52,933 bases of DNA from Nemertoderma westbladi. Its lineage: Eukaryota > Animalia > Xenacoelomorpha. The DNA is taken from assembly GCA_032718475.1 (NCBI GenBank), contig JAUCBJ010002890.1, positions 1-52,933 of the forward strand, given 5' to 3'. Of this stretch, positions 987 through 41,480 are shown piece after piece (position 1 is the stretch's first letter; the number at the start of each line of letters is the position of its first letter). Both the position numbers and the translations under genes were made by a program. The notes under the pieces are model-generated. The model was not told where the DNA came from, searched no databases, and was given only the letters and a program-made list of their open reading frames with translations.

Positions 987-992
987 GTTTCT

Positions 993-3900: not shown

Positions 3901-5240
3901 AGTTCCGTGGCTACACCATGTATATCACATGTTCTCTGAAGTTCCGTGGCTACACCATGTATAGGTCGATCATATGTTCTCTGGAGTTCCGTGGCTACAC
4001 CATGTATAGGTCGATCATATGTTCTCTGAATTTCCGTGGCTACACCATGTATATCCCATGTTCTCTGAAGTTCCCTGGCTACACCATGTATATCACATGT
4101 TCTCTGAAGTTCCGTGGCTACACCATGTAAGTATATCCCATGTTCTCTGAAGTTCCGTGGCTACACCATGTATATCACATGTTCTCTGAAGTTCCGTGGC
4201 TACACCATGTATAGGTCGATCATATGTTCTCTGAAGTACCGTGGCTACACCATGTAAGTATATTACATGTTCTCTGAAGTTCCGTGGCTACACCATGTAA
4301 GTATATCCCATGTTCTCTGAAGTTCCGTGGCTACACCATGTATATCACATGTTCTCTGAAGTTCCGTGGCTAAACCATGTATAGGTCGATCATATGTTCT
4401 CTGAAGTTCCAAGGCTACACCATGTATATCCCATGTTCTCTGAAGTTCCCTGGCTACACCATGTATATCACATGTTCTCTGAAGTTCCGTGGCTACACCA
4501 TGTATATCCCATGTTCTCTGAAGTACCGTGGGTACACCCTGTATATCACATGTTCTCTGGTGTTCCGTGGCTACACCATGTATATCCCATGTTCTCTGAA
4601 GTTCCGTGGCTACACCATGTATATCCCATGTTCTCTGAAGTACCGTGGCTACACCATGTAAGTATATCACATGTTCTCTGGAGTTCCGTGGCTACACCAT
4701 GTATGTATATCACATGTTCTCTGGAGTTCCGTGGCTACACCATGTATGTATATCACATGTTCTCTGGAGTTCCGTGGCTACACCATGTATATCAATCATA
4801 TGTTCTCTAAAGTTTAGTGGCTACACCATGTACATGTTCTCTGAAGTTCCCTGGCTACACCATGTATATCACATGTTCTCTGAAGTTCCCTGGCTACACC
4901 ATGTATATCACATGTTCTCTGAAGTTCCCTGGCTACACCATGTTTATCACATGTTCTCTGGAGTTCCGTGGCTACACCATGTATGTATATCACATGTTCT
5001 CTGGAGTTCCGTGGCTACACCATGTATATCACATGTTCTCTGAAGTTCCCTGGCTACACCATGTATATCACATGTTTTCTGAAGTTCCCTGGCTACACCA
5101 TGTATATCACATGTTCTCTGGAGTTCCGTGGCTACACCATGTATATCCCATGTTCTCTGAAGTTCCCTGGCTACACCATGTATGTATATCACATGTTCTC
5201 TGAAGTTCCTTGGCTACTCCATGTATATCACATGTTCTCT
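993..5240. repeat. Minisatellite A, ~39-bp core unit TGAAGTTCCGTGGCTACACCATGTATATCACATGTTCTC (41-45 bp variants), interrupted by a solo LTR
   Basis: Continuous tandem copies. Explains the FRGYTMY / VPWLHHV ORFs. Confidence 0.97.
1199..1883 (+). mobile_element. Solo LTR (685 bp) of the same family as the element-2 LTRs
   Basis: TGTAAGCGGATTC...GATCCCGTCACA (TG...CA). 5-bp TSD TATAT at 1194-1198 and 1884-1888. Aligns end to end with 32489-33124 and 40866-41480. Confidence 0.95.
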
Positions 5241-5667: not shown

Positions 5668-6774
5668 TGTTCGCTTTAGATTTTAACCTAACTAACGTTC
5701 CCCATTTTCCCTCGGTCCTAGTCTCAGTACCGTAGTGTCGGTGTCGGTCGACCCTGTTGCGTGTCCGTCCCACCCTTGCTGAACCCCGGAAGGATCGGTG
5801 CATCAGGAAAGCGGTACGGCTTGGCTAGGGGTCTGTCAAGTCGGTGGACCCGTTTGCGTGTCCGTCCCACCGTTCCCGAACCCCGAAGGGATCGGTCATC
5901 AGGAAAGCGGTACGGCTTGTCTAGGGGTCCGTCGGTTCATTACAGGGACCCAACCACCTAAGCTTTCCGAATCCTTTTCAGGCTCGTAGTCGCTTCGGTA
6001 GCCGAGAAGCTGCTCCGAACAGTCGGTAGGCCAGTAGAGTCTGGTCCTTTGTCTTTCGACCCCATTGCGTGTCCGTCGCACCCTTCCTGAACCCCGAAGG
6101 GATCGGTCATCAGGAAAGCGGTACGGCTTGGCAAGGGGTCTGTCAGCCCGTCGTGAGTCCCAACGGTTGGTGGTTTTCCGTGTCCTTATTCAGGCTCGTA
6201 CTAACGCCGGTCGTGGAACCCACTCCAGGAAGGCAGTCCTTGTCGAAACCTTCCTCCGTTAGTCGGTCGACCCGTTGCAAGTCCCTGGCGTATGTCGGCA
6301 AGCTTTCCGAGTCCTTATTCAGGCTCGTAATAACTGCCGGCAACCAGGGACCGCTAAGGATCTGTCTGTTGGTTCCTGTTGCAAATCCCTGACACAAGCA
6401 GCAGACTTTCCGAGTCCTTATTCAGGCTCGTAATAACTACTGTTGGCCAGGGACCGCTAAGGGCAGTCCTTGTCCCTAGGCCTAGTGAGTTACCAAATCC
6501 ACCTCTACAGGCAGCAGGAAGTTGGCTAGGCCTAATAGTATTCAGACAAACCTGAGTACTGCTTAACTTTGCCTCCCACCCCTGGCCCTTAAATATCTGA
6601 CATGAGTCCCGTACCCCGTAAGTCGCCCCAATATTCGCCCGTAAATCGTCCCCAGTCCATTGAATGTGCCCGAATTCCATGTTCCCGCACCCAGTATTGA
6701 TATTGGAATATTCATTTCAAATAAATCCAAAAAATATTCAACTCGCGTTAAGAAAAGTTGAAATACCGCGAACA
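5668..6774 (-). repeat. 3' LTR of element 1 (1107 bp) with internal tandem repeats
   Basis: Perfect 7-bp terminal inverted repeat TGTTCGC (5668-5674)...GCGAACA (6768-6774). Preceded on the minus strand by GGGGGGGAC. Contains three ~100-bp repeats (from ~5757, ~5855, ~6066) and four TTCCG..TCCTT(A/T)TTCAGGCTCGTA repeats. Confidence 0.75.
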
Positions 6775-6783
6775 GTCCCCCCC
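6775..6783 (-). other. Polypurine tract (G7AC) of element 1
   Basis: Plus-strand GTCCCCCCC directly abuts the LTR terminus. Confidence 0.7.
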
Positions 6784-6951
6784 AATGACCTTTGTGAGGT
6801 CTATCGGTAGATCGAGCTTGCGTAGGTCATTTCCCATATAAAAAACCCAAATTTTAATATTGCATAGTCTTGATTAATTTTTCCTAGAGTTAGTTTATGT
6901 AAATATACAAATAAATGTTCGATATAAATGTCTCTGGAATATCCTGGTCCT

Positions 6952-9542
6952 CTATTTCTTACTCTGATACGCCTTTCTCCTCATCCCCCTTCTACTCTCG
7001 TCGATCTCCAGTACTGGTAGGGGAGCATCAACGTCCATCGCGATCATCGCTTCAGCTTGTCTCCTGGCGGCTCTTCCCTTAGATGGTAGCGGGATCATAT
7101 CCGTCCGTCTCTCCAACTCGGTAGTGCGTACCTCTAGGAACCACTTTCCGTCACCGAATTCTTCCTTATAGGAGTATAAACGCCTAAGGATCTCGAAGGG
7201 GCCGAATAATCCAGTGCTTAATAATAGATCCACGTAATGGAATGGTAGCGTCGCTGTCCTATGGAGGCATTCTGGGAACGAGAAGTACCCACACGCCATC
7301 TCTTGCGCGATATTTCGAGCGCTTCTCTGCACTTTGGTCTTTATGTGGTTATTGGCGTAGGTTTCGAACATAACCATATTTCCCATAGCTGTTACATCCT
7401 TCTTAGGACACATTATGTTACAACAGGGGCTTGCGGAATGTCCACGGAAGCCGCATTCTGTGCAGAGGTTGTAAAGGATAGGACAAACCGAAACATCGTG
7501 GCCCGATAGGGACAGTAAAGTATCCCAAGGAGCTGGAGGCACGAATCGGTAACCCGATTTCTCCTTCCGGGTGGACACTGCTCCAAACCGCAGTTTCCGC
7601 ACACCTCCAGTTGCATCTCCCGGCTGAAGAATATCGGAATCGGTACGCTGGCGTAATACTCCAGTCGTCGGTCGCTTTTGGGTATACTCGCCGTGGCCGG
7701 TAGCCCGCGGAAAGCTGGGCTTTGGCATAGTATGTTCTCATTTCAATAACCTTCTTTATATCCTGCCGGTCGCATCCCGGGCGCCCGTTTCTGGTGGTGG
7801 ATCCATTCGGTCTGTTCGGCGTACCATCGGGTAAGTCACATAGGGTCTTGTGGAACGGAAGGGGCCGTTGCCACAGCTGGTCGGCGAAGAGGTGCCGGGG
7901 CGTTCGCCGGAGGAATTCCGAGGAGATCTACGGGAGTCGGAGCAATGCTGGGACCCTTTGCAACCTGTATCGCTGAGCGGGTCCGTTGGGTGCTGGTACT
8001 CGGGATCTCCGAAGACCAGTCTTCTCCCCCCGGGAACGGATATGGAGACAACCTCTGGCATATGTTGCCGAAGTCATTCAGCGCGAAGGTGGTTACTAGC
8101 TCCCTAGCAGGACTACCGGAGCCAAGTGGGGTGGATACGCCTGCTTCCGTCGCAGGTTCGGCCGAGGCGAGCCGTTTGGCAGCTGGTTCGTACGCGACTT
8201 CCGGATCGAGTTGTCGCTTTGGGGTGGACAGTAGAACACCTTCCTGTAGCCATAATTCCTCCCCATCCGAAGATATCAGTGGTTCCTCTGCACCGAGGAG
8301 ATCAGCAATCGTAGGGATGTCGAACAGTCCATTCTCGTCCCAGGATGTGATGACGTGGAGCGTTTTCGTCTTTCCCGGTGGAATATTCTCTACCGCTTTG
8401 AACGCGTGGTCGATAACTTCGTTCCACTCATAGTCGATAAAGGATCTAGGAACCGCATTAATGAGATTATCGAGAGTCTTACAGATGAACTTGGCAACTG
8501 TGTATGATTCCATTACGACGTATATATAGTTCCGTCGATCCGGATTCTCCCACTTGTGGTGGATCATCCACTTTCTTTCTACGTCCTTCCAATGACTCTC
8601 TCGCTCACTCTTTATCTCTAATTCCGGGTACCCACCATATATCTTATTATAATCCTGGAATTTCTGAGGTTTAAAGTCTATACCGCCGTTTAGCACCGCG
8701 AGGTAGCCGATACCGGATTTCGTCGGTCTCACCTCCCGGAATCCGCGCATGAATTCTGTGGATCGCAACCATGCTAACAGTGTTTGGGTGTCGACGCAAT
8801 GACTAATGGCGTTGAGATCTTCTCGAAAGTTTCTTCCGAAAGGAGCGTTATTGTAGTTGTTTCGGAGGTCCGCCTTTATATCCGACCCAATTTTAATGAC
8901 ATCGAAATCGAATAGGATCTGTTGGATCTCCGGTGGTAATAGCCAGACCGCTCCGGCTGTCCGCACCTCCTGTTTGGGTGTCGGGAATATTCGACATATC
9001 AACACCAGACCATCTAGGGTTCCGAGGATGATGACCAATGATCGACCGTATTCCTTCGTCCCATACTTCTCCTGGTAGTCGTCGCGATTCTGGATAACTG
9101 ATATACGTTCCTCTCTCAGCGTCGCTGTACACTCCGCTAGGTTTCCCCAGTGGGTGAGGTACATACTCTTGTCATCGACGAAACTTTGGCATCGCGCCAA
9201 CGTAATCGCTTTCGAGGTGGGTGTTGCGTTTCCCTCGTTGTCGTATATCAAGCATCGGGATTTGTAGACGCTTTGCCGGAACGTATCCCAGAACGACAAC
9301 TCCGCTCCTCCGGTTGCCTTTGTGTTCCGAGTTCTTTTCAGGCTCGTACTAACATCGGTCAACTGGAGCTCTCATAGATTACGGGAATCCGGTCCCTCTC
9401 GCCCGGAGAATTTAATGATTCGCATATTCTCGGTTATCAGGGCGTTCCATTCTATATCAAATTTAGGAGATCCAGGCTGTGGATATTCCAGTAAATCTAG
9501 TGTATTACGTAGTTCGCCGAGAATTTGGCGATTTGGGTCCAT
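6952..9542 (-). pseudogene. Accessory ORF of element 1: WRN/EXD-like 3'-5' exonuclease-like domain, acidic/Pro linker and Cys/His zinc-knuckle cluster (~860 codons when repaired)
   Basis: Read by hand, one frame runs from ATG 9542 through the 7836-9362 ORF to CGNCGLEQC...CPY, broken only by TGA at 9372, 7836 and 7743. A frameshift near 7505 leads into GHDVSVCPILYNLCTECGFRGHSASPC. Exonuclease-like motifs: LPPEIQQILFDFDVIKIGSDIKADL, CVDTQTL, GIGYLAVLNGGIDFKP, W..P.RRNYIYVVME. Confidence 0.7.
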
Positions 9543-10096
9543 ATTTTCAATTATGTCCGTTGCAAATTTAAGTAAGTTAATTATAAATCCAGAAAGTCTG
9601 ATTCTATAGTGACTGCAGAATAATTCAGTTTATTTGTAATTCAGTTTATTAATTATTATTGCTATATAGGCATCTACCATCTTATTGCTACTACATTCAG
9701 TATTTACAGTTACTATAGCTATACAATTATATCCAACCAGTTTTGACTTTTTATGTCCTCTTCTTTTTCCAATTATTTTCCTTTCTACATTTTATACATT
9801 TTTTTGTCTTTTTTTTATTTCTCATTTATTACTCATTTCACATTTCATTATTTCTTTCCACATTTCATCATTTATTTCCACATTACATCATTTATTTCAC
9901 ATTTATTACACATTTCATTTATTTCCACATTTCATCATTGGGGTTATATCCCCCCGGCTATCATCATTTGTTATAAGCACAGCACCAGGGTGCGCATCAT
10001 TACATTTTCTTTCAGTTTATAGTAAGGTTGTCTGTTTCTTTTCATCATTTCCAACTACATTCAACCATCTTCTTTGGGAAATTTTCGTTGTTGAAG

Positions 10097-10520
10097 GGGT
10101 GTTACGTGGCAATCTGGGATCTACAGCTGGGCTAGTTACACCGCCTATGCCCCAAACTGCACACGTAACGGACAATGAAGACGCTAGGAGTGAAGTCACG
10201 TGGAATGCACCAGGGACCCACCAGAATAACACTCCCAACAACATAAAGCTCAGCCGACGAAGTCATGTGGGATGGGGTTACGTAACATTCTGGGATCTAC
10301 AGCTGGACTAGTTACACCGCCTACGCCCCAAAATCCACGCAACGGTCCCACCAGAATAAAACGACTGAGAAACATAAAACCTCTATCGGCGAAGTCATAT
10401 GGATGCACCATGGACCCACCAGAATAACGGGATAGAGGGGGTGTTGCATGGCAATCCGGGATCTACAGCTGGACTAGTTACACCGCCTACGCCCCGAACT
10501 GCGCACGCAACGGACAACAC
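10097..10520. repeat. Three ~80-170-bp imperfect direct repeats in the integrase-to-accessory-ORF spacer
   Basis: GGGATCTACAGCTGG(G/A)CTAGTTACACCGCCTA(T/C)GCCCC recurs at ~10116, ~10291 and ~10458. Confidence 0.85.
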
Positions 10521-10789
10521 AATACAACACAATGGATACAATGAATTCCACTTCAAATCTTTTCCATTTCCAATAATCCAATATAGTTGGTCCTGATGAC
10601 CAAAATCAGGGTGAACAATACATAAACTACCCTGTGTCAGTCGAAACATCTGCAGGGTGATGCTGGACTCCACATAACACATGAGGAAACACAAATACCA
10701 TTGCGTGGTTACAGATGGTTTAAGGGGGGTCCATTATTCATTGTCGATAAAGAACATTTTAAAGAGTTTGTCAACAGGATGGGAAGGGT

Positions 10790-12127
10790 TTAAATGGGTT
10801 TAGCATTGTCACCAATGTCTGCAGCAGGATCCGGAGTAGGGAACTTATCACTTCTCGTGGAGTCACCACTGTCATTGCCTTCGAGAAGGCACAGCCTCTG
10901 GATAGGGCGTTGGTAGTGGCCCTTTGCCGTTCGTATTGTCACAGTTCTCGCAAGTCCGTCTTTACTCGGGGTTATTGCCACGACTCGCGCCACAGGCCAG
11001 TGGACGCGGTCTTTAAGGTCTTCCTTAACCAACACCATGTCGCCAATGGCGACATTCCTGTAGGTGTTGTTCCACTTCCTCCTGGTCCAGAGGGTTATGA
11101 GGTACTCTTGGGCCCAGATTCTCCACCAATGCGCTGCCAGCACTTGGGCCTTCTTCCAATTGGTATGTCTCGTGATATCGTTGGGGTCTGGGAACATCGC
11201 CTCTGGAAGAATTTTGGTTTTGGGTCTTCCGAGTAGATGGTTAGGTGTAAGAGGCTCTAGATCTGTGGGGTCGTCGTGGATAGGTACGATGGGCCGGTTG
11301 TTTAGGGTAGCCGTGATCTCGCAGAATGTTGTGCGAAGGGTGTCATGGGTTACCCGGGTATCCCCTAATGCAACGCGCATGGATCGTTTCATCAAGTCGA
11401 TGAGCTTCTCCCATACCCTGCTCGTATGGGGTGCCAAGGGTGTTTGGAAGTGCCATTGTATATGGTGTTCCCTCCAAACTTGGGAAGCGGTGTCTTCGGT
11501 GAACCATCCCTCGATCGCCTCTCTAAGTTCCCTTTCTCCTCCCACGAAGTTTGTACCATTATCGGAGTACATATGACGACATGTTCCATTGTTTGCCACG
11601 AACCGACGCAGGGCGTTGATAAATGCGTGTTGCGTAAGGGTTACTACGAGGTCTAGGTAGATCGCCCTAGACCTAAGGCATGTAAAGATGGCTCCCCAGC
11701 ATTTTATGTTGGATCGTCGCTCGATGACTGTGAATGATCCGAAACAGTCTACTCCAGTTACGTAGAATGGTGGGGAATCGGACTGCAGTCGTGTGGCCGG
11801 TAGGTCGGCCATTCTTTGTGTGCGTGGTGGCGCTAGGTATCTTCTGCAAGGAAAACAACGCTTTAATACTTTCCGGATCAGTGGCTGGATGTGGGTAATC
11901 CAATATCTTTGCCGGATGTTAGCCATAATCCAGTTCTGGCCCGTGTGATGGTTTTCTTCATGACACTGTTGGATTAATAGCTTGGCTAGTGTTGACGTTC
12001 CGGGCAGAAGCGCTGGGTATTTGACTTTGTATTCGACCGGGGCATTTGCCATCCGGGTATTCAGTCGAATCAGTCCATCTTCTCCCATCATGGGTCTCAA
12101 TTGGTAGACTGGACTGTCCGGTTTCAA
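10790..12127 (-). CDS. BEL/Pao integrase (HHCC zinc finger, DDE core and BEL-type C-terminal domain), frameshifted from upstream pol
   Basis: CHEENHHTG...CFPC, GVDCFG, SDNGTNFVG, PLAPH..VWE, LNNRP, LTPNHLL, FW-like WWRIWAQEYL, GDMVLVKE..WPVARV...DGLARTV...YQRPIQRLCLL. Confidence 0.93.
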   Translation of the reverse strand: MKPDSPVYQLRPMMGEDGLIRLNTRMANAPVEYKVKYPALLPGTSTLAKLLIQQCHEENHHTGQNWIMANIRQRYWITHIQPLIRKVLKRCFPCRRYLAPPRTQRMADLPATRLQSDSPPFYVTGVDCFGSFTVIERRSNIKCWGAIFTCLRSRAIYLDLVVTLTQHAFINALRRFVANNGTCRHMYSDNGTNFVGGERELREAIEGWFTEDTASQVWREHHIQWHFQTPLAPHTSRVWEKLIDLMKRSMRVALGDTRVTHDTLRTTFCEITATLNNRPIVPIHDDPTDLEPLTPNHLLGRPKTKILPEAMFPDPNDITRHTNWKKAQVLAAHWWRIWAQEYLITLWTRRKWNNTYRNVAIGDMVLVKEDLKDRVHWPVARVVAITPSKDGLARTVTIRTAKGHYQRPIQRLCLLEGNDSGDSTRSDKFPTPDPAADIGDNAKPI

Positions 12128-12495
12128 AGTCTTGCCCGCACTGAGCTGTTCCCACTCATCGGGAAACTTTCTTTCTGGACATATCTAACAATACATTTCT
12201 CCGCAATAATGAGTTCTTGTATACTTCGTCGAACTATCGGTTTGTTATCCTTCTACAGTAGGAAGTTGCGAAGAGTTATGACATGGTGGATGAGACGTCT
12301 CATTGAGGAGGTTCGCTCTATCAATAGTTGTAAAGACGCCGCTGGTTGTGTGATAGTCGCGATATTATAGCGCCTGCCCGAGTCCTTTGCAGGCTCGGTC
12401 AGACAACTATAGATCTCCACTGTGGCGCTTCTATGGACTTTACGGATCTCCTTGTCGTCTTCGGAGTATTTTCCGCTATCTAGTTCGGGATCGAA

Positions 12496-13500
12496 TCAGG
12501 TACTCCAGGTTAATTGTGGCTGCTGTAGGAATTCCGGGCCTGTGAGCCAAAGTTTACTCTTACCGAGCTGTCGTGGGGTGGCGCCTCTGCTCGATAAGTC
12601 CGCTGGGTTTTCTTTCCCGTTTACATGGTGCCACTGTTCTCGGCCAGTACACTGTTTTATCTCCATGGCTCGGTTCGCTACAAACGTGGTATGACGCCAT
12701 GATGGTGAGTGGAGGTAGTAGAGTACAATACTCGAATCGACCCAGAAATGCTGCGATTCGATGGGGATTCTTAAGTTCCGCATGATCATGCGGTTCTGCC
12801 TCACTGCCCAAACTGCGGCCTGTAGCTCGAGTCTCAGTATCGTTGCTACGAATTCCCCGGATACCGTCTTAGCCTTAGAGAATAAGAAGCTCGTATCGCC
12901 GTTTCCATCCTGACTTAGTCTTCTTAGGAAGGTAACTACGCCGATTCCAGTATTCGATGCATCCGAGAAAGTATGGAGCTGGAATATATCGGTGGGTAGT
13001 TTATCGAGAAAGAACGGTCGAGGGATCCGCATAAGATGTAGATGTTCGAGTTGTTCCGTCCACTTTCTCCATTTGGCACTGAGGTGTGGGGGGAGTTCCT
13101 CATCCCATCCCAGTCCTGTTATCCACATCTCTTTGATCAGATTCATTCCAGCCAATATTACTGGGGATATGAAGTTTAGTGGATCAAATATTGCACTCTT
13201 TATAGACAAACATCCCCTTTTTGTCATGGGCTTGGGTAGGGGGTTATATTTGAAGATGAACTCATCCAATTCTATGTCCCATTCGATACCGAGTACACGG
13301 TGATCCACGCCCTCGGAATACATTTTATTGTCATCCAGTCTGATTTCCTCCGGAAACTTTTCCATAAGTTCCTTATCGTGGGATCTAAACTTTATGAGAG
13401 GGAAGCCTCCTCTCTTTAAACATTCCACCATTCCCATCGCCAGCTGATATGCCTCATTGACATTATCGGCACCGGCGCATCCGTCGCCTACGTAGAAGCA
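12496..13500 (-). pseudogene. RT C-terminus and RNase H region of BEL/Pao pol
   Basis: In frame with 13501-15426 after a TGA. CFYVGDG (YVDD degenerated to YVGD), VLGIEWD, TKRGCLS..IFDPL, LHTFSDAS, TILRLELQAA, FWVDS, FVANR, WHHVNGKENPADLSSRG, LWLTGPEFL. Confidence 0.92.
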
Positions 13501-15426
13501 TCATTGGATGGTCTCTATGACTGCCGGAGGGAACTCGTTTTCGCACATAGCCGCTGTTTTCTTCAGCATGTCACTATATGCCACCGGCGAGTCCTTAGCG
13601 CCGAAGATCCTGACAATCATGCGCATTACGTCCACATCCTTCAAGGTGAGTTGATTTATCTCCTGTGGAGTTAATGTTTTATCTGTCCATAATATGCGTA
13701 GACAATCTGAGTCTCTTGGTAGTGTTCGGACCTGGTGGAACATCGCTTTGATGTCGCATGTGAAAGCTATTCGGTTTTCCCTGAACCTGATCAACATGCC
13801 GATGAGTGTACTGTATATGTTGGGCCCTGTATAGAGTTGACTGTTCAGGGATTCTCCCTGATACGTAGCCGCAGCATCGTTTACTACCCGGATTTTAACA
13901 CCCTTCCGGGCTTCTACCACATAGTGGGTTGGGAGATAATACGTCCATCTACCCCCTTGCAGTTCATTCTGGGGTACCATTTCTGCCAATCCATCTTCTA
14001 GATATCCTTTAATTACATTATTGTATTTCTCCTTTATCTTGGGTAGGTCGTTTAACCGGCATAGGATTCCTTTGAGCCGCATAAGGGCCATGCTGGTAAT
14101 ATTCGCCATTGGTCTATCTGGATCTTTCCACAGCATGGGCGAACACCAATGTCCGTCTTTGAACGTTGCCTGATCAAGGATGTCGATACAATATTGGTCT
14201 TTCTCGGACGGGTTCTCGTCCTTCTCAGCAAACTCTTGGGTCTCTAGGTTGAAGTACTTGGTCATCTCCTGCTGGGTTTTTTCGGTTTCTAGGAATAAAT
14301 CCTCGTCCAGGTCGGTGGCTGAACAGTAACCCACGGATGTTGCATTCTCTTTAATCTGGCATTTAGGGAGATATGTATAGGTGTCGGCAGTCTCCTCTTT
14401 GATGCCGCAGAGTGTCCATCCCATGATGGTGCGTTCTGCATAAAAGCCATCGTCCGGCTTTACGGATCGGGCTACGTCTCCGGTTGGTATATGTAACTCC
14501 GGTGTATCAAGTCCGATTAGTAGGGTAATTCGGTTCACGTCCAACGGCGGGCATTGTAGATCTACATCTTCCCGGTCTAGCTGTATGAGGGGTGCGTATT
14601 CAGATGATTGTCGGAACCACACTCGGAGATCGGTGTGTACTAGAGCGTTCTTGATCGTCAGTTTGACTGTCTCGTAACCCTTCATAACCCCTTCTATCTT
14701 GAGTTGTACCTCCCCGGACTCTACTTCTCTATGGTTGGTGATAGTTTGTATGGGCCGCTTGCAAGGTTCGTAATCTAGGCCTAGTTGTTCGAGGAAATCC
14801 TGGTCGATGATGGTTCCGTCCGAACCGTTGTCAAGGAATGCGAGCATTGTTAAGGATTTCCCGACCCATTGAATTCTTACTGGGATCACTTTGGCGAAGA
14901 CCATGTAATGGCGGTTTATAAGATTGATCGTAGCCGAGATATTTGTCACATGTGATACATCGGTGGCGGTCTTAAACGGATTGGTTTCCCTCCGTTGAAT
15001 CGTCCGGGTACCCTTAGAGACGTGATTCGTTTCTCCTCTCCGTTTGGATTCAATCCGGAATGGTAGGGTAGTAAAATCGAAGTTCGCAGGGATGTGGAGG
15101 AGTGTGTGATGGCGTAGGTCATTACAGACCGTGCAGCACGATCTTTGGTCACAATCCTGAACATAGTGACCTGTTCCGAGACACCGGAAGCATCCTCGGT
15201 GTTTCATTATCGCCTCGAAGCATGGAACGAGTTCAGCAAACTGGAACTTTCTGCAGAATTCCACCTTGTGTTTCTCTCTGAAGAAGAGACATAGAAGGGA
15301 GGTTGTGGTGCCTTCCCTTTCGGGTGCCCAATTCGCTAGATAACACGCCCATTCCTCGGCTGATGTCGGTTCCTCGTAGTCCTCATCGTCGGAATCCTTG
15401 GCCATAGTGATGGCCATCGTACTCAC
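13501..15426 (-). pseudogene. Gag zinc knuckles, aspartic protease and RT N-terminal part of the BEL/Pao polyprotein
   Basis: CFRCLGTGHYVQDC, CTVCNDLRHHTLLH, AFLDNGSDGTII, RTIMGWTLCG, YYLPTHYV, KIRVVNDAA, SLNSQLYTGP, DIKAMFHQV, FGAKDSP. Confidence 0.93.
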
Positions 15427-16150
15427 CGCAGGGGGACGGAATCTCGGTTTCGGAGTGGGTGCCTGCTCCTAGAGTTGTTCTTTACTCCGTCTAATTTGGA
15501 GAGACTTTGTTTGGAGAACATCGAGTCATTCATGGCTTTGGAGATATCATCTAGGAATGCCGACATTTCGAGGAAACTGGGATCCCGATCTGGGTGTCTG
15601 CGTCGTAGATCTACGCATTTATACGCCCATTTGCTTTGCAGCCATCCGGGGAACTTTCGGGCAATCTGTCGGAGGTTTAAAATGTTGTTTACTTGTTCCT
15701 CCTTGTTTAATGGTTTTAAAGTGTAGTAGGCATCTTTCATAGAATCCGAGAACTCTTGGATATTCTGTGGATCCCCTAGGGATCCAGCGTCCTGTATCAG
15801 ATTCTCGAGCGTCTTATTAATTATAGTTCCGATGTTTCCGTACCTTTTATCTAGAGTTTTCCATGCGTCGTGGTACGCTTCGTGAGATCCTCCTTCAAAC
15901 ATTTAATGATTCGACGTGGTTTGTCGCCTAGGTATTGGGATAAATATACCAGCAGTTTTTGTGCGTCGGTTATATCCGTTGACCCGATCTGAGCGAAGAA
16001 CCGTTTCTTAAATCCGAGGTAATCGACGGGGTCTCCCTCGAAGGTGCGGATCTCCATCTTGGGCATAGCCAGGCGGTTTTCCAAGGCTCGGATGATGCCG
16101 ACGTCGTCTGAACTGGAATGACTAGGAGGATTGTAATTACTAACACTCTC
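15423..16150 (-). pseudogene. BEL/Pao gag (DUF1759-like region), frameshifted and 5'-truncated
   Basis: MPKMEIRTFEGDPVDYLGFKKRF, QKLLVYLSQYLGD, AYHDAWKTLDKRYG, KFPGWLQSKW, PSFLEMSAFL. Confidence 0.88.
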
Positions 16151-16970
16151 ATTTGTGTGCGTCTTTCTGGCTCCTGCTAATGCAGTACAACTTTCGACAA
16201 TGTGTTTCTCGGATTGTGGGCAACCGCAACCAGAAATGCGAGACTTGTAATCACTGCGGGACCAACGTCCAATCTTCACCGGCAGCCGGGTAGATGATAG
16301 ACGAAAGCGGGTCCAGGAAAGTCTGTGTAACTCATTAGAGGTGTTATTTGTCCAGTAAGTCATAGGGGTTGTCAGGCGCGCGTTTACAGACTTGTACAGT
16401 ACTAGTCTAGTCCTGGTACTAGCCATGATACGGGCCTTTGTGGCAGAGCAGCTTGACACTAGTGGAGATTCGGGCAAAGACAGGAGCTCGTCAATTTTTC
16501 TGGCCATTGGAGTGCAGGCTTCCCTACCGAGGTCGAGTACAAACATGAGAGGAACGTGCCGATCACGGCTTGTCGAAATGGTTACAAGGAAACTGCGTTG
16601 TCGATCCCTTATAAATGTGTCAGCGTCTGCAAACCCAGACTCAATGTGTAAAATTTCTCTACACGTCTGTCGTCTTACACCAAGTGCTGCGCAGAGCAGT
16701 ATTATCATACATTGTGGTCAACTTAATAGGTGAACTCCCAATCCAAGTTTCACAGCCGTAAAATACTGCTGAAATTAGTGCTGCACGAAAAATATATAAT
16801 TTCAACCACACTGGCATTAATTAAGGCGTGCTTAGATAATAAACCAAAATACTTTGGGCAATGATTATGTTTATCCTGCTGCTGCAGAATAAACACAGAG
16901 CTAAGTTTACCATTCTGAGTTATGGGAGAACCTAGATGTGTATATGAGTCGCAGTGACTTATTGAAATAG
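16150..16970 (-). pseudogene. Fragment of non-LTR retrotransposon (LINE) ORF2, RT thumb to C-terminal Cys/His region
   Basis: Hand translation gives SYTHLGSPITQNG, LKLYIFRAALISAVFYGCETW, LGVRRQT....IESG and TRFRLSSTRLPVKIGRW...GCGCPQSEKHIVESC, typical LINE ORF2 3' motifs with frameshifts. Confidence 0.8.
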
Positions 16971-25968: not shown

Positions 25969-26181
25969 GTGAGTAACCAATATTCCGCATCCAATAATAT
26001 TAATTCATATTATAAGTAAATACTTTTGAACTTTGTGGTTTTAAGTATTCTGAATAGTTCGGACGAAAATATCAATAGAGGGGTCGCACGTTGTGGATCG
26101 AATTAGATGAAGCTAACAATTCCTAAGGCGAATCGTTTTACGACCTCGTCTTGTCGATTTAGAGTTTTTACTATTATTGTT

Positions 26182-32390: not shown

Positions 32391-32488
32391 TACCCTTTGA
32401 TATTTTCGTTACTCGTACCGTTAGGAAGCTGCCTTACAAGGATTGTCTGCCATGACATCTAGGATATCAGAATGCGGTTAGACCTATA

Positions 32489-33124
32489 TGTAAGCGGATT
32501 CAATTCCACTTCATTACCCACCAGAAAATGGGACTAGTGGCATTTTAGCAATATGTTGGGGATACGAGATTACCAATATTAATCTCGTCTCATAACCAAC
32601 ATTGGGGGGGGGGGGGACCCAAGCCCCAAAGCCACAGAGAAAGGTGAGAGGTCAAACCACCTTGGAGGGGATACAGCTAGTAGAGGCTAGCAGTGGAGGG
32701 GAAACACTCCCAGGGAGTGCCAAAGTGACAAGTAGTATATTAGCCAGTAGTGGGGAGGGAAGCACGTGATAGGGGACAGGAAAGCATCCATTGGGTAGAG
32801 GGCCAAAGGTAGAGTAGGATGTATTCAATGTATTAATCAGATATTATCTTACATTACTGGTTTACCGGTCAGTTGTGTTATTCAGTTCAGTGAGTGCAGA
32901 CAGGTCATAGTTAATGACCGCCACCGCCATACCAGTAACAATTAATCTGTATTTTCTGCCTTTATCTAACTACGTGCTATTATCGTCCATATTAATTAAT
33001 ATCGAAAGACAACAGGAACTTTCACTGTTTTCCTGAATGGCCTCGGCCAAAGCTAGTAGCACGATCCCAGCAGAACGGTGACGCGTACATTTCTAACCCG
33101 GTCGGGATCTCCGATCCCGTCACA
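32489..33124 (+). repeat. 5' LTR of element 2
   Basis: TGTAAGCGG...CCCGTCACA, highly similar to the 3' LTR. Confidence 0.95.
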
Positions 33125-33180
33125 GTCATTAACTCTACCTCCTGCCAATAAACTGTGACTGCAAGAACAAAGAGATCGAG

Positions 33181-35510
33181 ATGAGCGATAGGGAGCCCCG
33201 ATTATCAGAGGGAGAGAGGACGCCGTCGCGGACCCTGGACGATACCAACCAAACGATCCGTGAGGCCACGACGAAATGGTATCGGCCTGCCACGCCGACG
33301 AGAGACGATCCGGCTACCCAAGCGGAGGGCGGCCGTCAACCACAAGGGAGAGACGAGTTGACGCACGACGGCGGTCGGGGTACCGAAGTCGCCAGCCAGC
33401 CACAGGCCAAGGGCAACGGATGGCCCACCGGAACGGTGACGGTGGGGCCGCCGGTACGACGCCGGACGAGGACGGGAGGGGGAGTCGGCGAAGAGGACAT
33501 CGGGACGAGTGATCAGCTACGATGGGCCTTCAACTCCACCAAGAAACTGCTCAAGGAGGCAAAGAAGGGAGAAAGGTAGCCCAGCCTAAACTACATCAGA
33601 GGCTAGGTGAATCGAATAAACATTTTCGATATTTAGTCCGTTTTGGACAGAGAGAACTGGCAAGTGAGAGAGCAAGGGGGGTCGCCACGGAACTGTTTGA
33701 ATTGTGGCGATCCAGGGTAATGGAGCCTGAGGTAGTGTACGTAGGGCCCTACTTAGTGGATGCTAGGGGAATTAAGTGGCGCTGGATCAGCAGGAGTTGG
33801 AGAGGCAACTGGAAGAGGGAACCGCGTTATAAGAGAAAGAGAGAGAGTTAGCGAGGGTATGTAGAGAGAGGGCTGAGAGGGTGACGAGGAACTGTAGGGA
33901 GTGGGAGGAGAGAGAGATAAACAAGCGGGAGGCGAGAATAGAGAAAGAGCGCAAAGAGCGAGAAGCGGAAGAGGCAGCAAGGATAGGGAGGGAAACGAAC
34001 GAACGTAAAGAGCGAGAAGCGAGAGAGGTAGCGAGGGCAAAGAGAGAAACGAACGAGCGTAGAGAGCGGGAGGCGAGGGAGGCAGAATTAGCGAACCAAA
34101 GTTTGCGAGAGGATATAGAGAGAGAGAGCGGGAAAGCGTATGCGGGATGATATGCATGCCCGGTTAAGGGGGCTTATGCAATACCAGGCAAAGCAAAAGC
34201 GCCGATTAGAACTGGCGCAGTTGGGATTATCTGAGAGTGAGGCCGGTTTGGGTAGTATTTATGAGGGATACGAACTCAACGCATCGAATAACATCACCAC
34301 GATAGCGCTGGCACTGCCAATCTGGCTACGGAACAAATGGAGGAAGATCGCCTTCTCCACCCGGGAGAAGAAAGGTGCGGAACCGGGCCTAGAGGAAATT
34401 TCGAACTTCCACAATTACGAAGCGGAGTTGATTACAGACCCAGTCTACAGTGAGGATAGTTTGGGGAAGGCGCTGAAGACCGAATACAACAGGCCTAAAC
34501 CCGAACATAATCCGGCAGATGCATTCCCGAGAGTGAGACAGTCGCTACCACATGCGGCCACGCAGGGGACTACAAGTCCACAGTTAGCTGGGAGTAGGGC
34601 CACACCGTGGCAGGGACAGAAACAAAATAACAACACGAACAAACGTAATCCCAACACACCCAGTAGGCCGAGTCCAAATAATCAAAACACTAAACTGGTA
34701 GATATGAACCTACACGCGATACGTGAAGGGCTGTACAAGGAACGCTACAATCCAGGATACGAATGTCAATTACATAGGGATGGAACCCATAAGACCATGA
34801 GTTGTAAGCATTGGCAAGCGTTGCCTAAACAAGATCGGGTAGCCTACGCGAATACAAACGGACTATGTCATCGATGCGTGGTAGAAGGACACAGATTCGG
34901 AGAGTGTAGAGAAACACCAATAGGAGATGATGAGACTGGAGGCCAAACAATGGCTACGAGCACGATGGGAGCAATGAGAAAGAGGAAAGTACTACTCGGG
35001 GTAGTACCAGTGAGGATAACAGGAAAGGGCAGTCGATCAGTCACGACACTGATGCTGGTCGACAGCGGAGCAGCCTTCACGCTGGTGGAGAATTGGGTGG
35101 CCGAGGAGATAGGGTTACAGACGAGGCCGAGTAGGATGGCAGTAACTACTATCTCGATTAAGGATGAGGTCCTGGAGATGAGAACGGGATGTTGCGAGAT
35201 ATCAGCAATAGCACCAGGATGTGATTATGGGGCGACCATCGACCCCATTCAGATAATAGAATCGATTAATATAAACGCCAGGCGACCCACCAGGATCGAG
35301 GTCGAGCAATACCGGTTCCTGGACGATCTCGATTTCTCAATACCGGAAGTGGATGTCTCGAAGGTATCCATCATAGTCGGAATGGATTGTCCGACGGCCC
35401 ACGAGAGAGTAAGGATCATGTTGTCGGAGACATCAGGGTGCATGCTATCAGGCACTGTTAAGGACGTAAGAGGAGAAACCAGAGACGGGCGATGGGGAGG
35501 TCCCATGTGA
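33181..35510 (+). pseudogene. Decayed gag-protease of element 2
   Basis: ATG at 33181, then stops and frameshifts. R/E coiled coil, LPIWLRNKW...PGLEEISNF, CQLHRDGTHKTMSC, LCHRCVVEGHRFGEC, LLGVVPVRI...MLVDSGAAFTLV, VSIIVGMDCP. Homology to pol ends near SETSGCMLSG (~35455). Confidence 0.85.
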
Positions 35511-36319
35511 GAAGCGGCCCGGGGAAGGATACCAGGAGTTGGGTATGGATCTGGAACCACGCATAGTGGAGTGTGGTGAAAGCATAGAGGATAGTTCCGG
35601 AGAAATACCGTCGGTAGATAAGTTAGGAGGGGAAGTAACAGCAAGAGAGTGGGCGGAGGAGAATGGATTCGACGCGGAAGACTTAGAGATGATGGGATGG
35701 AACAAGGATGTTCCTGGCAACTATCGGTATGAGGATGGAGAAGAGTGGACAGCGAGATGTCCGGAGAAGTGTCTGGAGGAGACGCTGCTCCAGTTGAGAG
35801 CCATACCGAAAAGGGGAAGGTCAAATAAGAAGACAGGGTGGAAAGGGATAGGATTACTATTATCCATTCTGTTTTATCTATTCTTTCGATTTCTTTTCAT
35901 TCTACCGCCAGGTGACGACAAGATGAAGGGTGGCATTTTGCAGCCAGGGGACCATGAGGAAATCAAGAAGGCGACTGGAAGACCCGATTTTAGGGTGGTG
36001 GAGGAGGGAGAATCAATTCCTAGAGAGTTTGAATTAACAAGGAGAGTGGGGCGAAGGATAAGAGGACCTACAGGGAGTCAGTGGGAGAGTGCCTGCTGGA
36101 AGAATCGATGGAAGATCGAGGAATCCCTTGAAGTTTAGTCGTCCAATATGTTGGACTGAGGGGGGTGGGAATGAGGGCGAGTCGCCCTTCCCACACAAAT
36201 ATAAATACGCCCTTCCCACACAAATATAAATAATAAGAAAATAATAAAAATAAGTAGTGAGATAATAGAAAGTTAGAAAGTAATAGTAGTAGATAGTATG
36301 TAGCACTAAGTAAGTAGGC

Positions 36320-37060
36320 AGAAGTTAGGGAGTGTGGTACATTGATGTACCACGAGAGTAGTAGGGTACATAGTACCGTAGGCAGAAGTCAGGGAGTGTG
36401 GTATATTGACATACCACGAGAGTAGTGGCAGGGTACATAGTACCGCTGGTAGGAGTTAGAAGTATAGGGAGTGTGGTATATAAACATACCACGAGAGTAG
36501 TGGCAGGGTACATAGTACCGCTTGTAGAAGTTAGGGAGTGTGGTATATAAACATACCACGAGAGTAGTGGCAGGGTACATAGTACCACTGGTAGAAGTAA
36601 GAGTTAGAAGTTAGTAAGAGTAAGAGGCTCGTTAGAAGTTAGAGAATAGGGAGTGTGGTATATAGACATACCACGAGAGTAGTAGTGGGGTACATAGTAC
36701 CGAGAGAGTTAGAGGTTGTGGGCACCGAAAGCGCCACGTAGTAAGAGTGTAGAGGGTATGATATGTAGGTATACCATAGAAGTAGTAGCAGAGGGGTCGT
36801 GGGCACCGAAAGCGCCACGTAGAAGGAGAGTAGAGGGTATGGTATATAGGTATACCATAGAGGTAGTAGCAGAGGGGTTGTGCGCACCGAAAGCGCCACG
36901 TGGTGAGAGAGTGAAGGGTGTGGTATTTTGGTATACCATAGTAGCAGTATTAGGGTACATAGTACCATAGAAGTTAGAAGTTGTGGGCACCGAGAGTGCC
37001 ACGTAGTAAGAAAGTAAAGGGTATGTAGGCATAGCATAGTAGTGGTAGGGTACATAGTAA
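36320..37060 (+). repeat. Purine-rich array of ~60-80-bp units containing short hairpins, inside element 2
   Basis: Recurrent GTGGTAT-n6-ATACCAC, GGTAC-ATA-GTACC, GTGGGCACCGAAAGCGCCAC and TATGGTATA-TAGG-TATACCATA. Confidence 0.8.
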
Positions 37061-37144
37061 GAAGGAAGTAGCAAGGTAGATAGGATGATAGCACAGACAG
37101 GGATAACATGAGAAAAATAAATAAAACCAAGAAAAATTGGCACT

Positions 37145-38608
37145 TTGGGAGTGGTAGAGAACACAGGACATTGTGGAGCAGTGGGGATGGGCCAGCTCAT
37201 GGGCCTTGTCTGCCACAAGCCGATGGACTGGGGCAAGTTCCGGGAAGAGCATGGAGCGGGCACAGGACATTGTGAAGCAGTGGCGATGGGCCAGCTCATG
37301 AGGCTTGTCTGCCACAAGCCAATGGACTGGGGTAAATTCAGGGAGGAGTACGGAGCGAAGCTGGTGAACTCGCTGAAGTAGGGAGCGAGGCCAGGGAAAC
37401 AGGAGGTGTATCAGTTCCGAAGGGGAGCGTTAAAGATATATCAGAAGAGATATATCCTACAGGAGGATTGGGTAATGATAGGTTTACTAAACCTATTCAT
37501 GGCTGTGGTTATTGGAAAAGAGCCGACGGCGTTTCTGCTATCAGGAGCACCTCTAAACTACAGAAGAGCCTTTAAGGTGGCCTTCGAAGGTCTGGTAGAC
37601 CACCCGGGGCTGAAGGGCGAATCGGTGTACTACAACAGCCGGCACCTAGTAGACAGGGAGGTGGATACACCATACAAGAGATGGGAGAAGCTGGAAGCGG
37701 ATAGACTTGAGGAGAAGCGACTGGAAGAAGTCACCAGGCGAGAAAGGAGGGAGGCAGATGAGAGAGAGGCGGATGCTTGGGGAGAGGATTACAGATTCGA
37801 GGCCCAGAACTTGGACGAGCTGAGGTGGGGATCAGGGAGCTCGGGCGAGTTTCTGGGGGAGGAGCTAGGATGGACGGAAGAGTCGCCGAAACAGTCGACA
37901 TCGGGATTGCAAGCGATGCCCATGCCAGCGGGCTCTGAGGGCGATTTCGTGAGAAAGCATACAGACTGGGTTGGCGGGAGTGTGGTGACGGCCAGCGGGG
38001 CGAGGGCCTTCTCGGATAAACCCGGCAAGCAGACCTGGGTGCACGAGGAGCTGGCGATGGATTTCGTGGGGAGCATCATCAGGTTTGGCGAGCAACCGGG
38101 AACGGCACCACGGGTAGTGTTTGGAGAGACGATGCCAAGGCGGGATGAGGACGTGGATATGGATAGAGACGTTAATATCCAGAAGTTTGCCTACCAACGG
38201 CTCCACAGACCTAGGAGACCGCTCGGGGCAAAAGACGACTTGGGGCGGGATGCGTTGATACACGGCTGTGATTACTGCGGGAGGCTGACTCACCAGGAAA
38301 AGAGCTGTTTGTATCGATTTCAGAAGGGGGCGAGTTGCCTCTACTGCTGCGAGTCGAGCCACAGGATGGGAGCATGTCCGAGGTTGCACAACCACTGCTC
38401 AAAGTGTAACTTCCGAGGGCACTATGGGTGCCAGTGCGACTGGATGGACGACGAGGAGAAGTTTAAGATCTTCGAGGAGTGGGCCGACGTCGGCGTTATG
38501 ACGCGACAGAGAATGAAGGCCCAGGAGGTCCGGTGGGGTTTCTTCAACATCAATCAGGAAGCTCATCTGGAGATTATCAAGAGGAGACTGCCATTTACAT
38601 ATCAATAG
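37145..38608 (+). pseudogene. Accessory ORF of element 2: C-terminal half of the exonuclease-like domain, acidic linker and zinc-knuckle cluster; homologue of 6952-9542
   Basis: ORFs 37145-37381 and 37406-38608 share a frame across one TAG. Motifs GLVCHKPMDWGKFREEYG, LKIYQKRYILQED and CDYC..H..C..CLYC..HRMGACPRLHNHCSKCNFRGHYGCQC..FEEWA..WGFF. In-frame 99-bp duplication at 37162/37261. Confidence 0.7.
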
Positions 38609-39424
38609 GTAGCGACAGCGGCGTCGTATGGAGGAGTAATCAACACGCAGATGTATTTGGATAGATGGACGCCAGAAAACAGAGGAGAGTTTAGGACTCG
38701 GAGAGGGAGATGTGGGCGTGCCTGGAAGGCACCACATGTGAAATAATACGAACTCCTAAGTGCAAAATAATTAAGTGCAATTAGTATGTACCGGTACGTT
38801 ACGTATGTAATAATCAATATAAATAGAATATAATTAGAATGAATATAATCAAAGTAAGTACTATAGTCATAAATAACCTTTTTCCATCTAGCTAGTGGGA
38901 CTGGGGACCAATTGACTATGACAGGAGGACGGGACAATAGACGAATCACACTTCTTCAGTGCGACGGCACAAAAAAGGGGGGCGAGGCTCGTCAGGGGTG
39001 AGTGGAGTGAAACAAGCGTGGGTTGAGTATAGGAATATGAGGGAAGTATGGAGAGGAAGTGTTGTGAAAGGAGTGCAATTCAAGTGTGGGGAGCGAGCAG
39101 TAAGAGAGAGAGAGTAAGGGACAACAGGGTCCGTGAGAGAAAGAGTAGAGTGAGATTAGAGTGAATTCAGAGCGAAATCATATAAAATTGTGTGGAAAGA
39201 GAGTCCACAATTGTCTCGAACAGAGACATCAAATATCTTGGTGCAACATAGCTCGCGATTGCACCAAGGATGGGTAGCAATAACATACCCAAGGAAACAT
39301 ACCCTGGAAAGCCAACCCCGATAAAAGAACTCCACCCCACACCCAATAGTAGATTGGGTTCCAGCGGAATTGAAGCGCACTTGAGGTTGATGCTATCTTC
39401 TCACCGGGAAGATAGCATGGGGGG

Positions 39425-40850
39425 TAGAGTGTTTCATAAAAATTTTTTTTTTGAAATTACACCTCAACTGTACATTTTTATCCGGGTAGAGCCAAAAAAA
39501 CAATGTAGGCAAAAAATTGGCTCATGACAGTGACTTTTAGGGGTCGCCCACCCAGGATCTTGAAATTAAAGATTAGCGATATATGGACTGAGCGCATAGT
39601 TTCCGCGGTTTTCAATATATTGTTATGAGTTAAATATATTTATGTGCGACATATTGGTTTCAAATGCCTAATTAATGGGGATCATTTTGAATGGTCACAA
39701 GCCATGGTTTGGATCAGTGGAGTGCCAAAATGTCTATAGCCTAATGGCATATTAGCGCTATAAGTAATGACCGCATAGTTTTCGCGGTGTTGAATATATT
39801 GTTATAAGTAAAATATATATGTGTACCACATATCTTTTTGAAATGCCAGTTTCATGAGGATTAATTTGAATGGTTACAAGTCATCGTTTAGAGGCAAAAC
39901 ATAAAAGGAATAATAGAAGCTCAACAGCCCGTTTGATGGGTAACTTTACTTTTAATCAACATATTATATTCATTCATTTTAAAGTTGAACAATATTTTGA
40001 TACCTAATATATATATATATATATATTTAGGCCTAGGCCATATTTTGCTCAATAACACAAGAACAGTACTGGTAATAGTTTTCTAGAAAATTAGGCTAAT
40101 TCCTCTCTAGTTACTTTGATTGTGCCAGACATTTTGGAGTTTTTGGTACATTCCCTCGATGTCTTTTCCTATTACTCCTTTCTTCATACTTAATGAGTAT
40201 AGGCTCCAACTTTTTGGAATTCTTGAGTTCACCAACTAATCTCTCAGCAGGTTGATTGGATGCAAGGATGGTATTTGCTATTCGATCAATCGTCTCCCAA
40301 AGAGGATGTTCTATACTAGCATATACGTCAGTTAGTTGTTCTCTAATTGAGGGCAGAATATGAAAAAGAGGTGAGACTTGACAACGGTTCATCCAATTAG
40401 GGTATTCCAGCAAATCATTAATTGACAATGTTACTAGTTTCAGTTTTGGGAATTTCAGAACTATCCTGTTACTAAAGGTTGAACTACAACTCCCATTGAT
40501 TTTAAAAGCAGAATCTGTCACCATAGCTCGATATTCCTTGTCTAATGGAAGGAAAGAAGAGTCTAAGTTATATAGATGTCGTTCTATTGCTGAAAAGTAT
40601 GAAGTTGGCATGTTTAGTTTCACCCCAATATCAGCAAGCATGTTTGTGATTTGAAGGGTGTTCCTAATCATATTGGATCCATAAGTATCGACAGCAATCC
40701 GATGAGCCTGAAAGTGCACCACTGAATACTGCATAAATATATCTCCAAGCTGATTAAGTTTGCTAATGGACAACATTTCCTTTGTATTAAGACATATTGC
40801 TTCATCAGTCTTGGATTTAAAGCATTTGTTCTGTTTCTGTTCTTGTGTTT
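39425..40850 (-). mobile_element. One end of a DNA transposon (hAT/hATm-like) nested antisense at the PPT of element 2
   Basis: Begins TAGAGTGTTTCATAAAAATTTTTTTTTTGAAA (resembles TAG(G/A)GTG hATm termini). Has a ~179-bp subterminal duplication (39592/39771) and a transposase-like ORF cut off at the G-run. Confidence 0.55.
40111..40850 (-). CDS. 5'-truncated transposase-like ORF (C-terminal ~246 aa)
   Basis: Frame open from 40850 to the stop at 40111. IANTILASNQPAERLVGELK resembles the third-acidic-residue motif of hAT-related DDE transposases. Basic C-terminal tail. Confidence 0.5.
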
Positions 40851-40865
40851 GGGGGGGGGGGGGAG

Positions 40866-41480
40866 TGTAAGCGGATTCAATTCCACTTCATTACCCACCA
40901 GAAAATGGTACTAGTGGCATTTTAGCAATATGTTGGGGATACGAGATTACCAATATTAATCTCGCCTCATAACCAACATTGGGGGGGGGGGGGGGACACA
41001 AGCCCCAAAGCCACAGAGAAAGGTGAGAGGTCAAACCACCTCGGAGGAGAAACACTCCCAGGGAGTGCCAAAGTTACAAGTAGTATATTAGCCAATAGAG
41101 GGGAGGGAAGCACGTGATAGGGAACAGGAAAGCATCCATTGGGTAGAGGGCCAAAGGTAGAGTAGGGGGTAAACCAATATTCAATGTATTAATCATATAT
41201 TATCTTACATTACTGGTTTACTGGTCAGTTGTGTTATTCAGTTCAGTGAGTGCAGACAGGTCATAGTTAATGACCGCCAACGCCATACCGGTAACAATTA
41301 ATCTGTATTTTCTGCCTTTATCTAACTACGTGCTATTATCGTCCATATTAATTAATATCGAAAGACAACAGGAACTTTCACTGTTTTCCCGAACGGCCTC
41401 GGCCAAAGCTAGTAGCACGATCCCAGCAGAACGGTGACGCGTACATTTCTAACCCGGTCGGGATCTCCGATTCCGTCACA
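40866..41480 (+). repeat. 3' LTR of element 2
   Basis: Preceded by the PPT, ends TCCGTCACA followed by TSD CTATA. Confidence 0.95.

Follow-up and report, generated by a model that had tools for sequence, protein, structure and literature searches.

A possible RNA-binding accessory gene with a probable DEDDy-fold domain and zinc knuckles in a BEL/Pao retrotransposon of Nemertoderma westbladi

Introduction

Zinc knuckles bind single-stranded RNA, and the rotifer retrotransposons that carry a DEDDy exonuclease gene are of the Ty3/Gypsy type. In the bdelloid LTR retrotransposons Juno and Vesta and in Terminons, this gene (ORF3) occupies the env slot (Rodriguez, Kenefick, Arkhipova 2017, PMC5408684). 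The DEDDy exonuclease has been called a well-known accessory domain (PMC6338049). For BEL/Pao elements the ICTV profile (PMC8742986) lists just gag and pol, with an env-like gene whose function is unknown; in some members this third gene lies between pol and the 3′ LTR (see also PMC3118150). TbRND, the RNase D of Trypanosoma brucei, has a DEDD 3′–5′ exonuclease domain, a linker and tandem CCHC fingers that bind RNA; domain and fingers act jointly on RNA, and their pairing is termed very unusual (PMC7797062). Exonuclease folds also serve RNA binding without need of catalytic residues in Egalitarian and EXD1, which are linked to retrotransposon RNA transport or to piRNAs. The putative catalytic residues of Egalitarian are dispensable for RNA binding (PMC13186709), and the protein is a suggested carrier of HeT-A retrotransposon RNPs (PMC6114517). 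CERV, an accessory protein of the Caenorhabditis elegans element Cer1, is required for export of element RNA (PMC10309623).

Here, a third gene is described in a BEL/Pao element of Nemertoderma westbladi, located in a 52,933-nt stretch of contig JAUCBJ010002890.1 (assembly GCA_032718475.1), hereafter the window. Like rotifer ORF3, it is a non-env gene past pol with a probable RNase D/WRN-like domain and no membrane anchor apparent from hydropathy. It differs in its length of ~860 codons, its long linker and its BEL/Pao host, whereas ORF3 keeps its catalytic residues (DEED) and has no C-terminal CCHC knuckles described in the available part of PMC5408684. TbRND shares the order of domain, linker and fingers, but is a mitochondrial enzyme of the cell, has an intact site and joins its four fingers through a short linker; in the window gene the linker spans ~240 aa, the knuckles number three, the site is altered and a conserved tail is added. 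This likeness is probably convergent, since the knuckle match is weak (E=0.3). Egalitarian and EXD1 are genes of the host; their partner domains differ, and CCHC knuckles are absent. CERV is element-encoded and combines a disabled enzyme-like domain with a Cys-rich region. Homology to CERV was rejected because its domain is described as G-protein-like, not exonuclease-like; the word "exonuclease" is absent from PMC10309623.

Methods

Homologues were sought with phmmer using the first 431 residues of the accessory protein against 1.84 billion representatives. For the active site, the window copy was aligned with its two homologues (P0001 and P0002), RNase D and Pol I. Copies were surveyed in contigs of public DNA runs at 85% likeness, with window region 6700–9800 divided into 30 bins. 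Runs X1–X3 are three DNA runs from two samples; X5, the fourth, is labelled as the same species. One survey sample may be the source of the window itself. For the variant test in the linker at 7670–7910, 35 rows were considered, 4 in break codons were removed and 30 places were kept.

Results

Table 1. Coordinates of the BEL/Pao element, its accessory gene and the second LTR element (E2) in the window.
Feature	Position	Strand	Remarks
Gag, frameshifted	15470..16717	-	
Gag knuckle, protease, RT and RNase H regions	12499..15468	-	Broken by stops; Pfam PF05380 (E=4e-38), PF13650, PF17919
Integrase region of pol	10790..12184	-	Pfam PF17921, PF18701
Non-coding gap, pol to accessory ATG	9543..10789	-	1.25 kb; ~3 related repeats (10093-10528) and an A/T-rich stretch
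Accessory gene, first frame	7509..9542	-	678 codons, ATG 9542; in-frame TGA at 9374, 7838 and 7745
Probable DEDDy-fold domain	8470..9110	-	ExoI Q-N-R 9092-9084; ExoII D 8870; DTQ 8792; ExoIII Y 8528
Pro/Ser/Ala-rich linker, probably disordered	7620..8340	-	~240 aa
Three Cys/His knuckles	7420..7601	-	First degenerate, second split by frame change, third CX2CX4HX4C
Frame change, approximate site	7505..7520	-	Frames compared side by side; contig gaps nearby
Accessory gene, second frame	6952..7506	-	184 codons, TAG 6954-6952; end of knuckle 2, knuckle 3, conserved tail
Polypurine-tract-like G7A run	6776..6783	-	From sequence; matching pattern precedes E2 3′ LTR
E2	32489..41480	+	LTRs 32489-33124 and 40866-41480; 5-bp target duplication CTATA
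E2 accessory homologue	37121..38740	+	Stops at 37379 and 38606; putative C-terminal half of exonuclease-like domain, linker, three CCHC knuckles, tail

The minus strand of the window carries a decayed BEL/Pao element (Table 1). Pfam searches of the minus-strand frames placed protease and a Gag knuckle at 13504–15468, Pao Peptidase_A17 (E=4e-38) with RNase H-like matches at 12499–13500, and Integrase_H2C2 and DUF5641 (E=5e-27) at 10793–12184. Peptidase_A17 and DUF5641 are BEL-associated domains and both pass the curated Pfam cut-off. The pol order, protease-RT-RNase H-integrase, is that of BEL/Pao (Belpaoviridae). No 5′ LTR was found in the window upstream of gag (15470–16717), and the copy appears to be without its 5′ end, presumably lost. 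At the other end, the G7A run (6783–6776) is followed by TG at 6774, which is the putative 3′ LTR start by analogy with E2. An earlier note on this DNA had named a polypurine tract and 3′ LTR; the run and the TG are putative counterparts, and no LTR pair exists for this copy in the window, where the 3′ region has no second copy. The window lies in satellite-rich DNA with many decayed elements.

The accessory gene comprises 862 codons on the sense strand of the element at 9542–6952, 1.25 kb downstream of the integrase. This agrees with the earlier note, which had described a long sense-strand frame after the integrase, repairable to one gene of ~860 codons with three in-frame TGAs and one frameshift, and had quoted motifs that are all present in the sequence. 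Three stops were observed over the 862 codons, against ~40 expected by base composition (P=4e-14). GC content by codon position resembles that of pol, and no inverted or direct termini were found flanking the gene. Around the frame change at ~7510, an X5 contig spans 7460–7557 with 10 gap letters, and another contig stops at 7519. A reading as two separate ORFs, one ending at 7838 and the other starting at 7728, was rejected because the stops are mostly private to the window copy, no indel occurs at 7670–7910 and the variant pattern suits the first frame alone.

The accessory protein is predicted not to be Env-like. A hydropathy scan gave one internal hydrophobic 19-mer (aa 168–186, Kyte-Doolittle score 2.13) and a C-terminal peak of 1.09. 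The 19-mer aligns with homologue segments directly after ExoI, and this, with the low C-terminal peak, argues against an Env-type anchor. The internal 19-mer qualifies the earlier statement that signal peptide and transmembrane segments are missing.

The phmmer search gave two homologues, both singletons: P0001 has 472 aa (E=1.8e-6) and P0002 has 648 aa (E=2e-5), and their contigs measure 2.2 and 9.4 kb. P0002 is an intact protein with an exonuclease-like domain, linker and knuckles in one chain. Its C-terminus matches the second frame of the accessory gene (E=1e-8), though the knuckle half was absent from the query. The two-part design is therefore real: a search with just the N-terminal half retrieved an intact protein that proved to match the C-terminal knuckles as well. 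Word-based protein searches yielded no relative among 1341 candidates, and P0002 alone among 7990 and among 14. Locus scans detected no relative in metagenome contigs, viral contigs or prokaryote genomes, and no meaningful plasmid match.

Several Cys/His knuckles had been reported for the C-terminal part. Three were located, of which only the third is clean. The CX2CX4HX4C pattern is found in the third knuckle of the window copy, the second and third of P0002 and all three of E2. The P0002 knuckles have a match in HIV nucleocapsid structures (E=1e-4) and a weak one in Air2 (0.064); Lin28- and Air2-type knuckles are among the weak matches. A tail of ~60 residues is common to the window protein, P0002 and E2 and contains FE-W/Y-A, T-x-x-R, G-F/Y-F and LPF-x-Y. 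It matches no known family. In the ESM Atlas, giant-virus clusters appear for the tail at 0.89–0.90, which is a lead only.

E2 is a second LTR element on the plus strand, and its LTRs differ by 18 mismatches plus gaps. Its gag-protease frame (34119–35507) is related to that of the BEL/Pao element (E=1.5e-10, 26% identity). No match to RT, RNase H or integrase was found in E2, and it is considered BEL-type from the gag-protease likeness, not from a BEL-specific Pfam match. An accessory homologue lies in sense orientation between the pol remnant and the 3′ LTR and matches the BEL/Pao accessory gene (E=5e-9). All three of its CCHC knuckles are canonical, and the tail motif recurs. P0002 matches the knuckle region with E=2.5e-14, and a window-wide search with P0002 recovered it at 38321–38602 (E=1.4e-12). 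Further upstream, E2 looks like it encodes the C-terminal half of the exonuclease-like domain, by a weak match: pairwise E=0.004 with P0002, 1/1000 shuffles on a stretch picked by eye and a window-wide E of 1.4.

The accessory gene is supported as a feature of a multi-copy family. Contigs from X1, X2 and X3 (2455, 1671 and 1642) cover 30/30 bins of 6700–9800, with sequencing depth not equating to copy number. In X5, 9 contigs cover 28/30 bins, and one piece spans 6909–8813. With the homologue in E2, these copies indicate that the gene is not the one-off insertion that the earlier note had named as a refutation. At TGA 9374, 7838 and 7745, 94–100% of contig depth differs from the window copy, so the three stops are largely private to it. 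Between 7670 and 7910 the listed variants include no indel, and one contig crosses this region without gaps.

Variants among copies were compared by codon position; the earlier note had called for dN/dS among copies. The 30 variant places in the linker at 7670–7910 are not independent events. Third codon positions of the first frame account for 19 of them (P=7e-4), against 5/30 and 6/30 when the other frames are used. The changes are 20 synonymous, 10 non-synonymous and 1 nonsense, with ~28% synonymous expected. Across the whole gene, the best-supported 40 of 649 variant rows (2 dropped) have no third-position excess, with 12/33 in the first frame and 0/5 in the second. These 40 rows give no support for selection on the gene. 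They mostly represent sites where the window copy departs from nearly all others, an enrichment for its own changes that is expected of decay after insertion.

A DEDDy (RNase D/WRN/EXD2) fold is likely for the N-terminal domain; the tests are weak but largely concordant, and none is decisive. In the ESM Atlas, 25/30 matches belong to a set headed by a PF01612 3′–5′ exonuclease cluster (0.92), of which 50% of members carry the family. The shared-feature count was 158, lower than the 170 typical of same-family matches. P0002 matched PF01612 below the Pfam cut-off (E=0.048). With a three-sequence profile, the E. coli Pol I exonuclease scored above 2000/2000 shuffles and RNase D above 1993/2000, and hhalign gave E=0.0018 over 99 columns. 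Both AlphaFold models are of low confidence (pLDDT 31–33). The first 8 Foldseek rows are EXD2 or apPOL exonuclease structures, at E 0.2–1 from this poor input model. VIA-align gave a best Z of 2.9 with no DEDD structure among the listed matches, which excludes nothing with a low-confidence model. The accessory protein of the window has no Pfam, NCBIfam or PDB match to a DEDDy family. PDB sequence searches with the exonuclease-like part returned nothing relevant, and PHROGs contained no relevant family. The earlier proposal of a catalytically altered DnaQ-type domain is probable, with Atlas, Foldseek, profile tests and alignment in agreement.

In the active-site alignment, ExoI is Q-N-R in the window copy and D-x-E in P0001 and P0002; the earlier note had found no recognizable DxE. 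The ExoII Asp (D104) is invariant in 5/5 aligned sequences, the window copy included. ExoIII is Y-x-x-x-D in P0001 and Y-x-x-x-E in P0002, and E2 retains the ExoIII Glu. In the window copy it is Y-x-x-x-V, with Val at +4 and Glu at +6; the YxxxE reported previously takes the second Tyr. P0001 and P0002 have all DEDD motifs in order and spacing. By alignment, the window copy is without the ExoI Asp and Glu, and it probably also lacks the ExoIII acidic residue. The loss is read directly for the window copy. For the family we infer it, since the ExoI codons are five base changes from Asp/Glu codons, far above the expected divergence between copies. The window copy is accordingly not classed as an active DEDDy nuclease, and the domain may work like one or derive from one.

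Discussion

The window gene is a decayed copy of a third gene in a multi-copy BEL/Pao family and encodes a probable DEDDy-fold domain without most acidic catalytic residues, a long linker and three knuckles. Its product may be an adaptor that binds RNA of the element itself without catalysis, a reading that is put forward with reserve; the present observations fit binding of host small RNAs equally well. Because pol and the accessory ATG are 1.25 kb apart, with no coding sequence in between, the gene would be expressed from a spliced or internally started RNA. The knuckles, like those of nucleocapsid, Air2 or TbRND, would bind single-stranded RNA, and the exonuclease-fold domain, like that of Egalitarian, would hold an RNA end or stem but leave it uncut. 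Full-length element RNA would thereby be protected, exported or delivered to a packaging site. Relatives with acidic residues (P0001 and P0002) may have kept the ability to trim RNA 3′ ends. The simplest role for a gene held under selection across copies of an element would be to serve that element. The non-catalytic adaptor is favored for the RNA binding of knuckles and the precedents of TbRND, Egalitarian and CERV, and on this analysis would rank above counter-silencing, active trimming, a passenger and another fold.

Service to the element could also take the form of counter-silencing, in which the protein would bind or shield small RNAs and precursors of these at piRNA/siRNA 3′ ends, or would serve as a decoy for Nibbler/MUT-7/EXD1-type host proteins, so that the element is silenced less strongly. 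The nearest Foldseek rows include EXD2 and Nibbler exonuclease domains, the weak knuckle matches are Lin28/Air2-like, and the inactive DEDD derivatives Maelstrom and EXD1 act in piRNA biogenesis (PMC5408684). The rotifer DEDDy ORF3 showed no clear correlation with copy number (same article), and the window is crowded with decayed elements in satellite-rich DNA; this reading is considered unlikely. An active 3′–5′ exonuclease with shifted acidic residues, trimming element RNA or cDNA ends in replication, would suit the D-x-E, D and ExoIII acid of P0001 and P0002, the ExoIII Glu of E2 and the active DEDD nuclease with CCHC fingers in TbRND (PMC7797062). The window copy also has acids near both sites, D-D-Y-Q-E past the ExoI strand and E two residues beyond the ExoIII position. 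However, when it is aligned with RNase D and Pol I, its ExoI columns contain Q and R, and activity here is distinctly unlikely.

That the gene gives no service to the element, being a nested mobile unit or host fragment between pol and LTR, is very unlikely. The repeat-containing 1.25-kb gap, the absent 5′ LTR and a contig survey confined to 6700–9800, short of pol, are compatible with such a passenger. Against it are the same slot and orientation in E2, a distant LTR element with a target-site duplication, as well as the third-position excess among copies, the lack of termini around the gene and GC by codon position like pol. Similarly little probability is given to an N-terminal domain that is not DEDDy-derived, in which the motifs arose by chance and the element would in essence have two nucleocapsid-like proteins, this one with a further domain of unknown kind. 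The window protein stayed under the curated cut-offs in all library searches and the structure models are of low confidence, but the homologues hold all DEDD motifs in order and spacing, the profile beats shuffles for two real DEDDy domains, and Atlas and Foldseek agree.

The earlier note knew of no such architecture in BEL/Pao. Its novelty is overstated: LTR elements of rotifers are on record with a DEDDy gene in the env slot (PMC5408684). No BEL/Pao exonuclease gene was found in the open literature searched, and such an ORF may be on record in Repbase, Dfam, GyDB, subscription journals or supplements. Exonucleases are not mentioned for BEL/Pao in PMC8742986 or PMC3118150, the word has 0 occurrences in PMC6238403, and the available parts of PMC6431247 and PMC8220671 hold nothing further on BEL. 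Apparently new are the occurrence in BEL/Pao, the fused triple knuckle together with its conserved tail, and a set of homologues in which some active sites are intact and others altered.

A conserved non-env gene whose design suits work on RNA, seen in two distant elements within a single genome and as an intact protein from elsewhere, is a candidate for how BEL/Pao elements handle their RNA or cope with host silencing. It is doubtful, but conceivable, that BEL/Pao has its own lineage of exonuclease and triple-knuckle proteins, active and disabled, acting on small RNAs or the piRNA machinery; if true, that lineage would be an element-borne counter-silencing factor, built like trypanosome RNase D by convergence. 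The rotifer pattern of DEDDy cargo would be extended to another LTR superfamily, with a knuckle module added and the active site lost.

The second LTR element in the window, E2, bears a homologue of the accessory gene of the BEL element, a decayed minus-strand BEL/Pao retrotransposon. The E2 copy of the gene has an internal duplication at about 37160-37370. The remaining coding content of E2 is gag-protease only, and no RT, RNase H or integrase was found within the element. E2 is probably internally deleted and non-autonomous. A solo-LTR-like copy related to its LTR sits within a 39-base satellite array (see table).

Repeats and LTR features of the window
Feature	Position	Strand	Details
E2	32489-41480	+	5-bp target duplication
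Solo-LTR-like copy	1194-1883		78% alike to E2 LTR
26-base motif	9348, 6432, 6329, 6200, 5988	-	5 occurrences
Related repeats, several	5740-6460		90-100 bases each; downstream of putative 3′ LTR start
Related repeats, about three	10093-10528		between BEL-element pol and accessory ATG
Dispersed repeat	17097-18782, 21988-22040		45-60-base inverted arms with (GATCT)n
Large tandem arrays	987-5240, 26050-28200, 30114-32450, 41675-47900, 50238-51310

In the BEL element, four of the five copies of the 26-base motif fall in the putative 3′ LTR region, and the fifth lies inside the accessory gene, in its 5′ part; the motif could be a cis-acting signal. The far end of this putative LTR was not found within the window. 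The (GATCT)n-containing dispersed repeat lies a short way upstream of gag, at the place expected for the 5′ LTR.

The knuckle-plus-tail domain, the C-terminal part of the BEL-element accessory gene (6955-7530, minus strand), is matched at 0.89-0.90 by unnamed Nucleocytoviricota protein clusters in the ESM Atlas, a likeness that we treat as a lead only. The surroundings are satellite-rich, with tandem-array periods of about 39, 27, 23, 21 and 146/292 bases.
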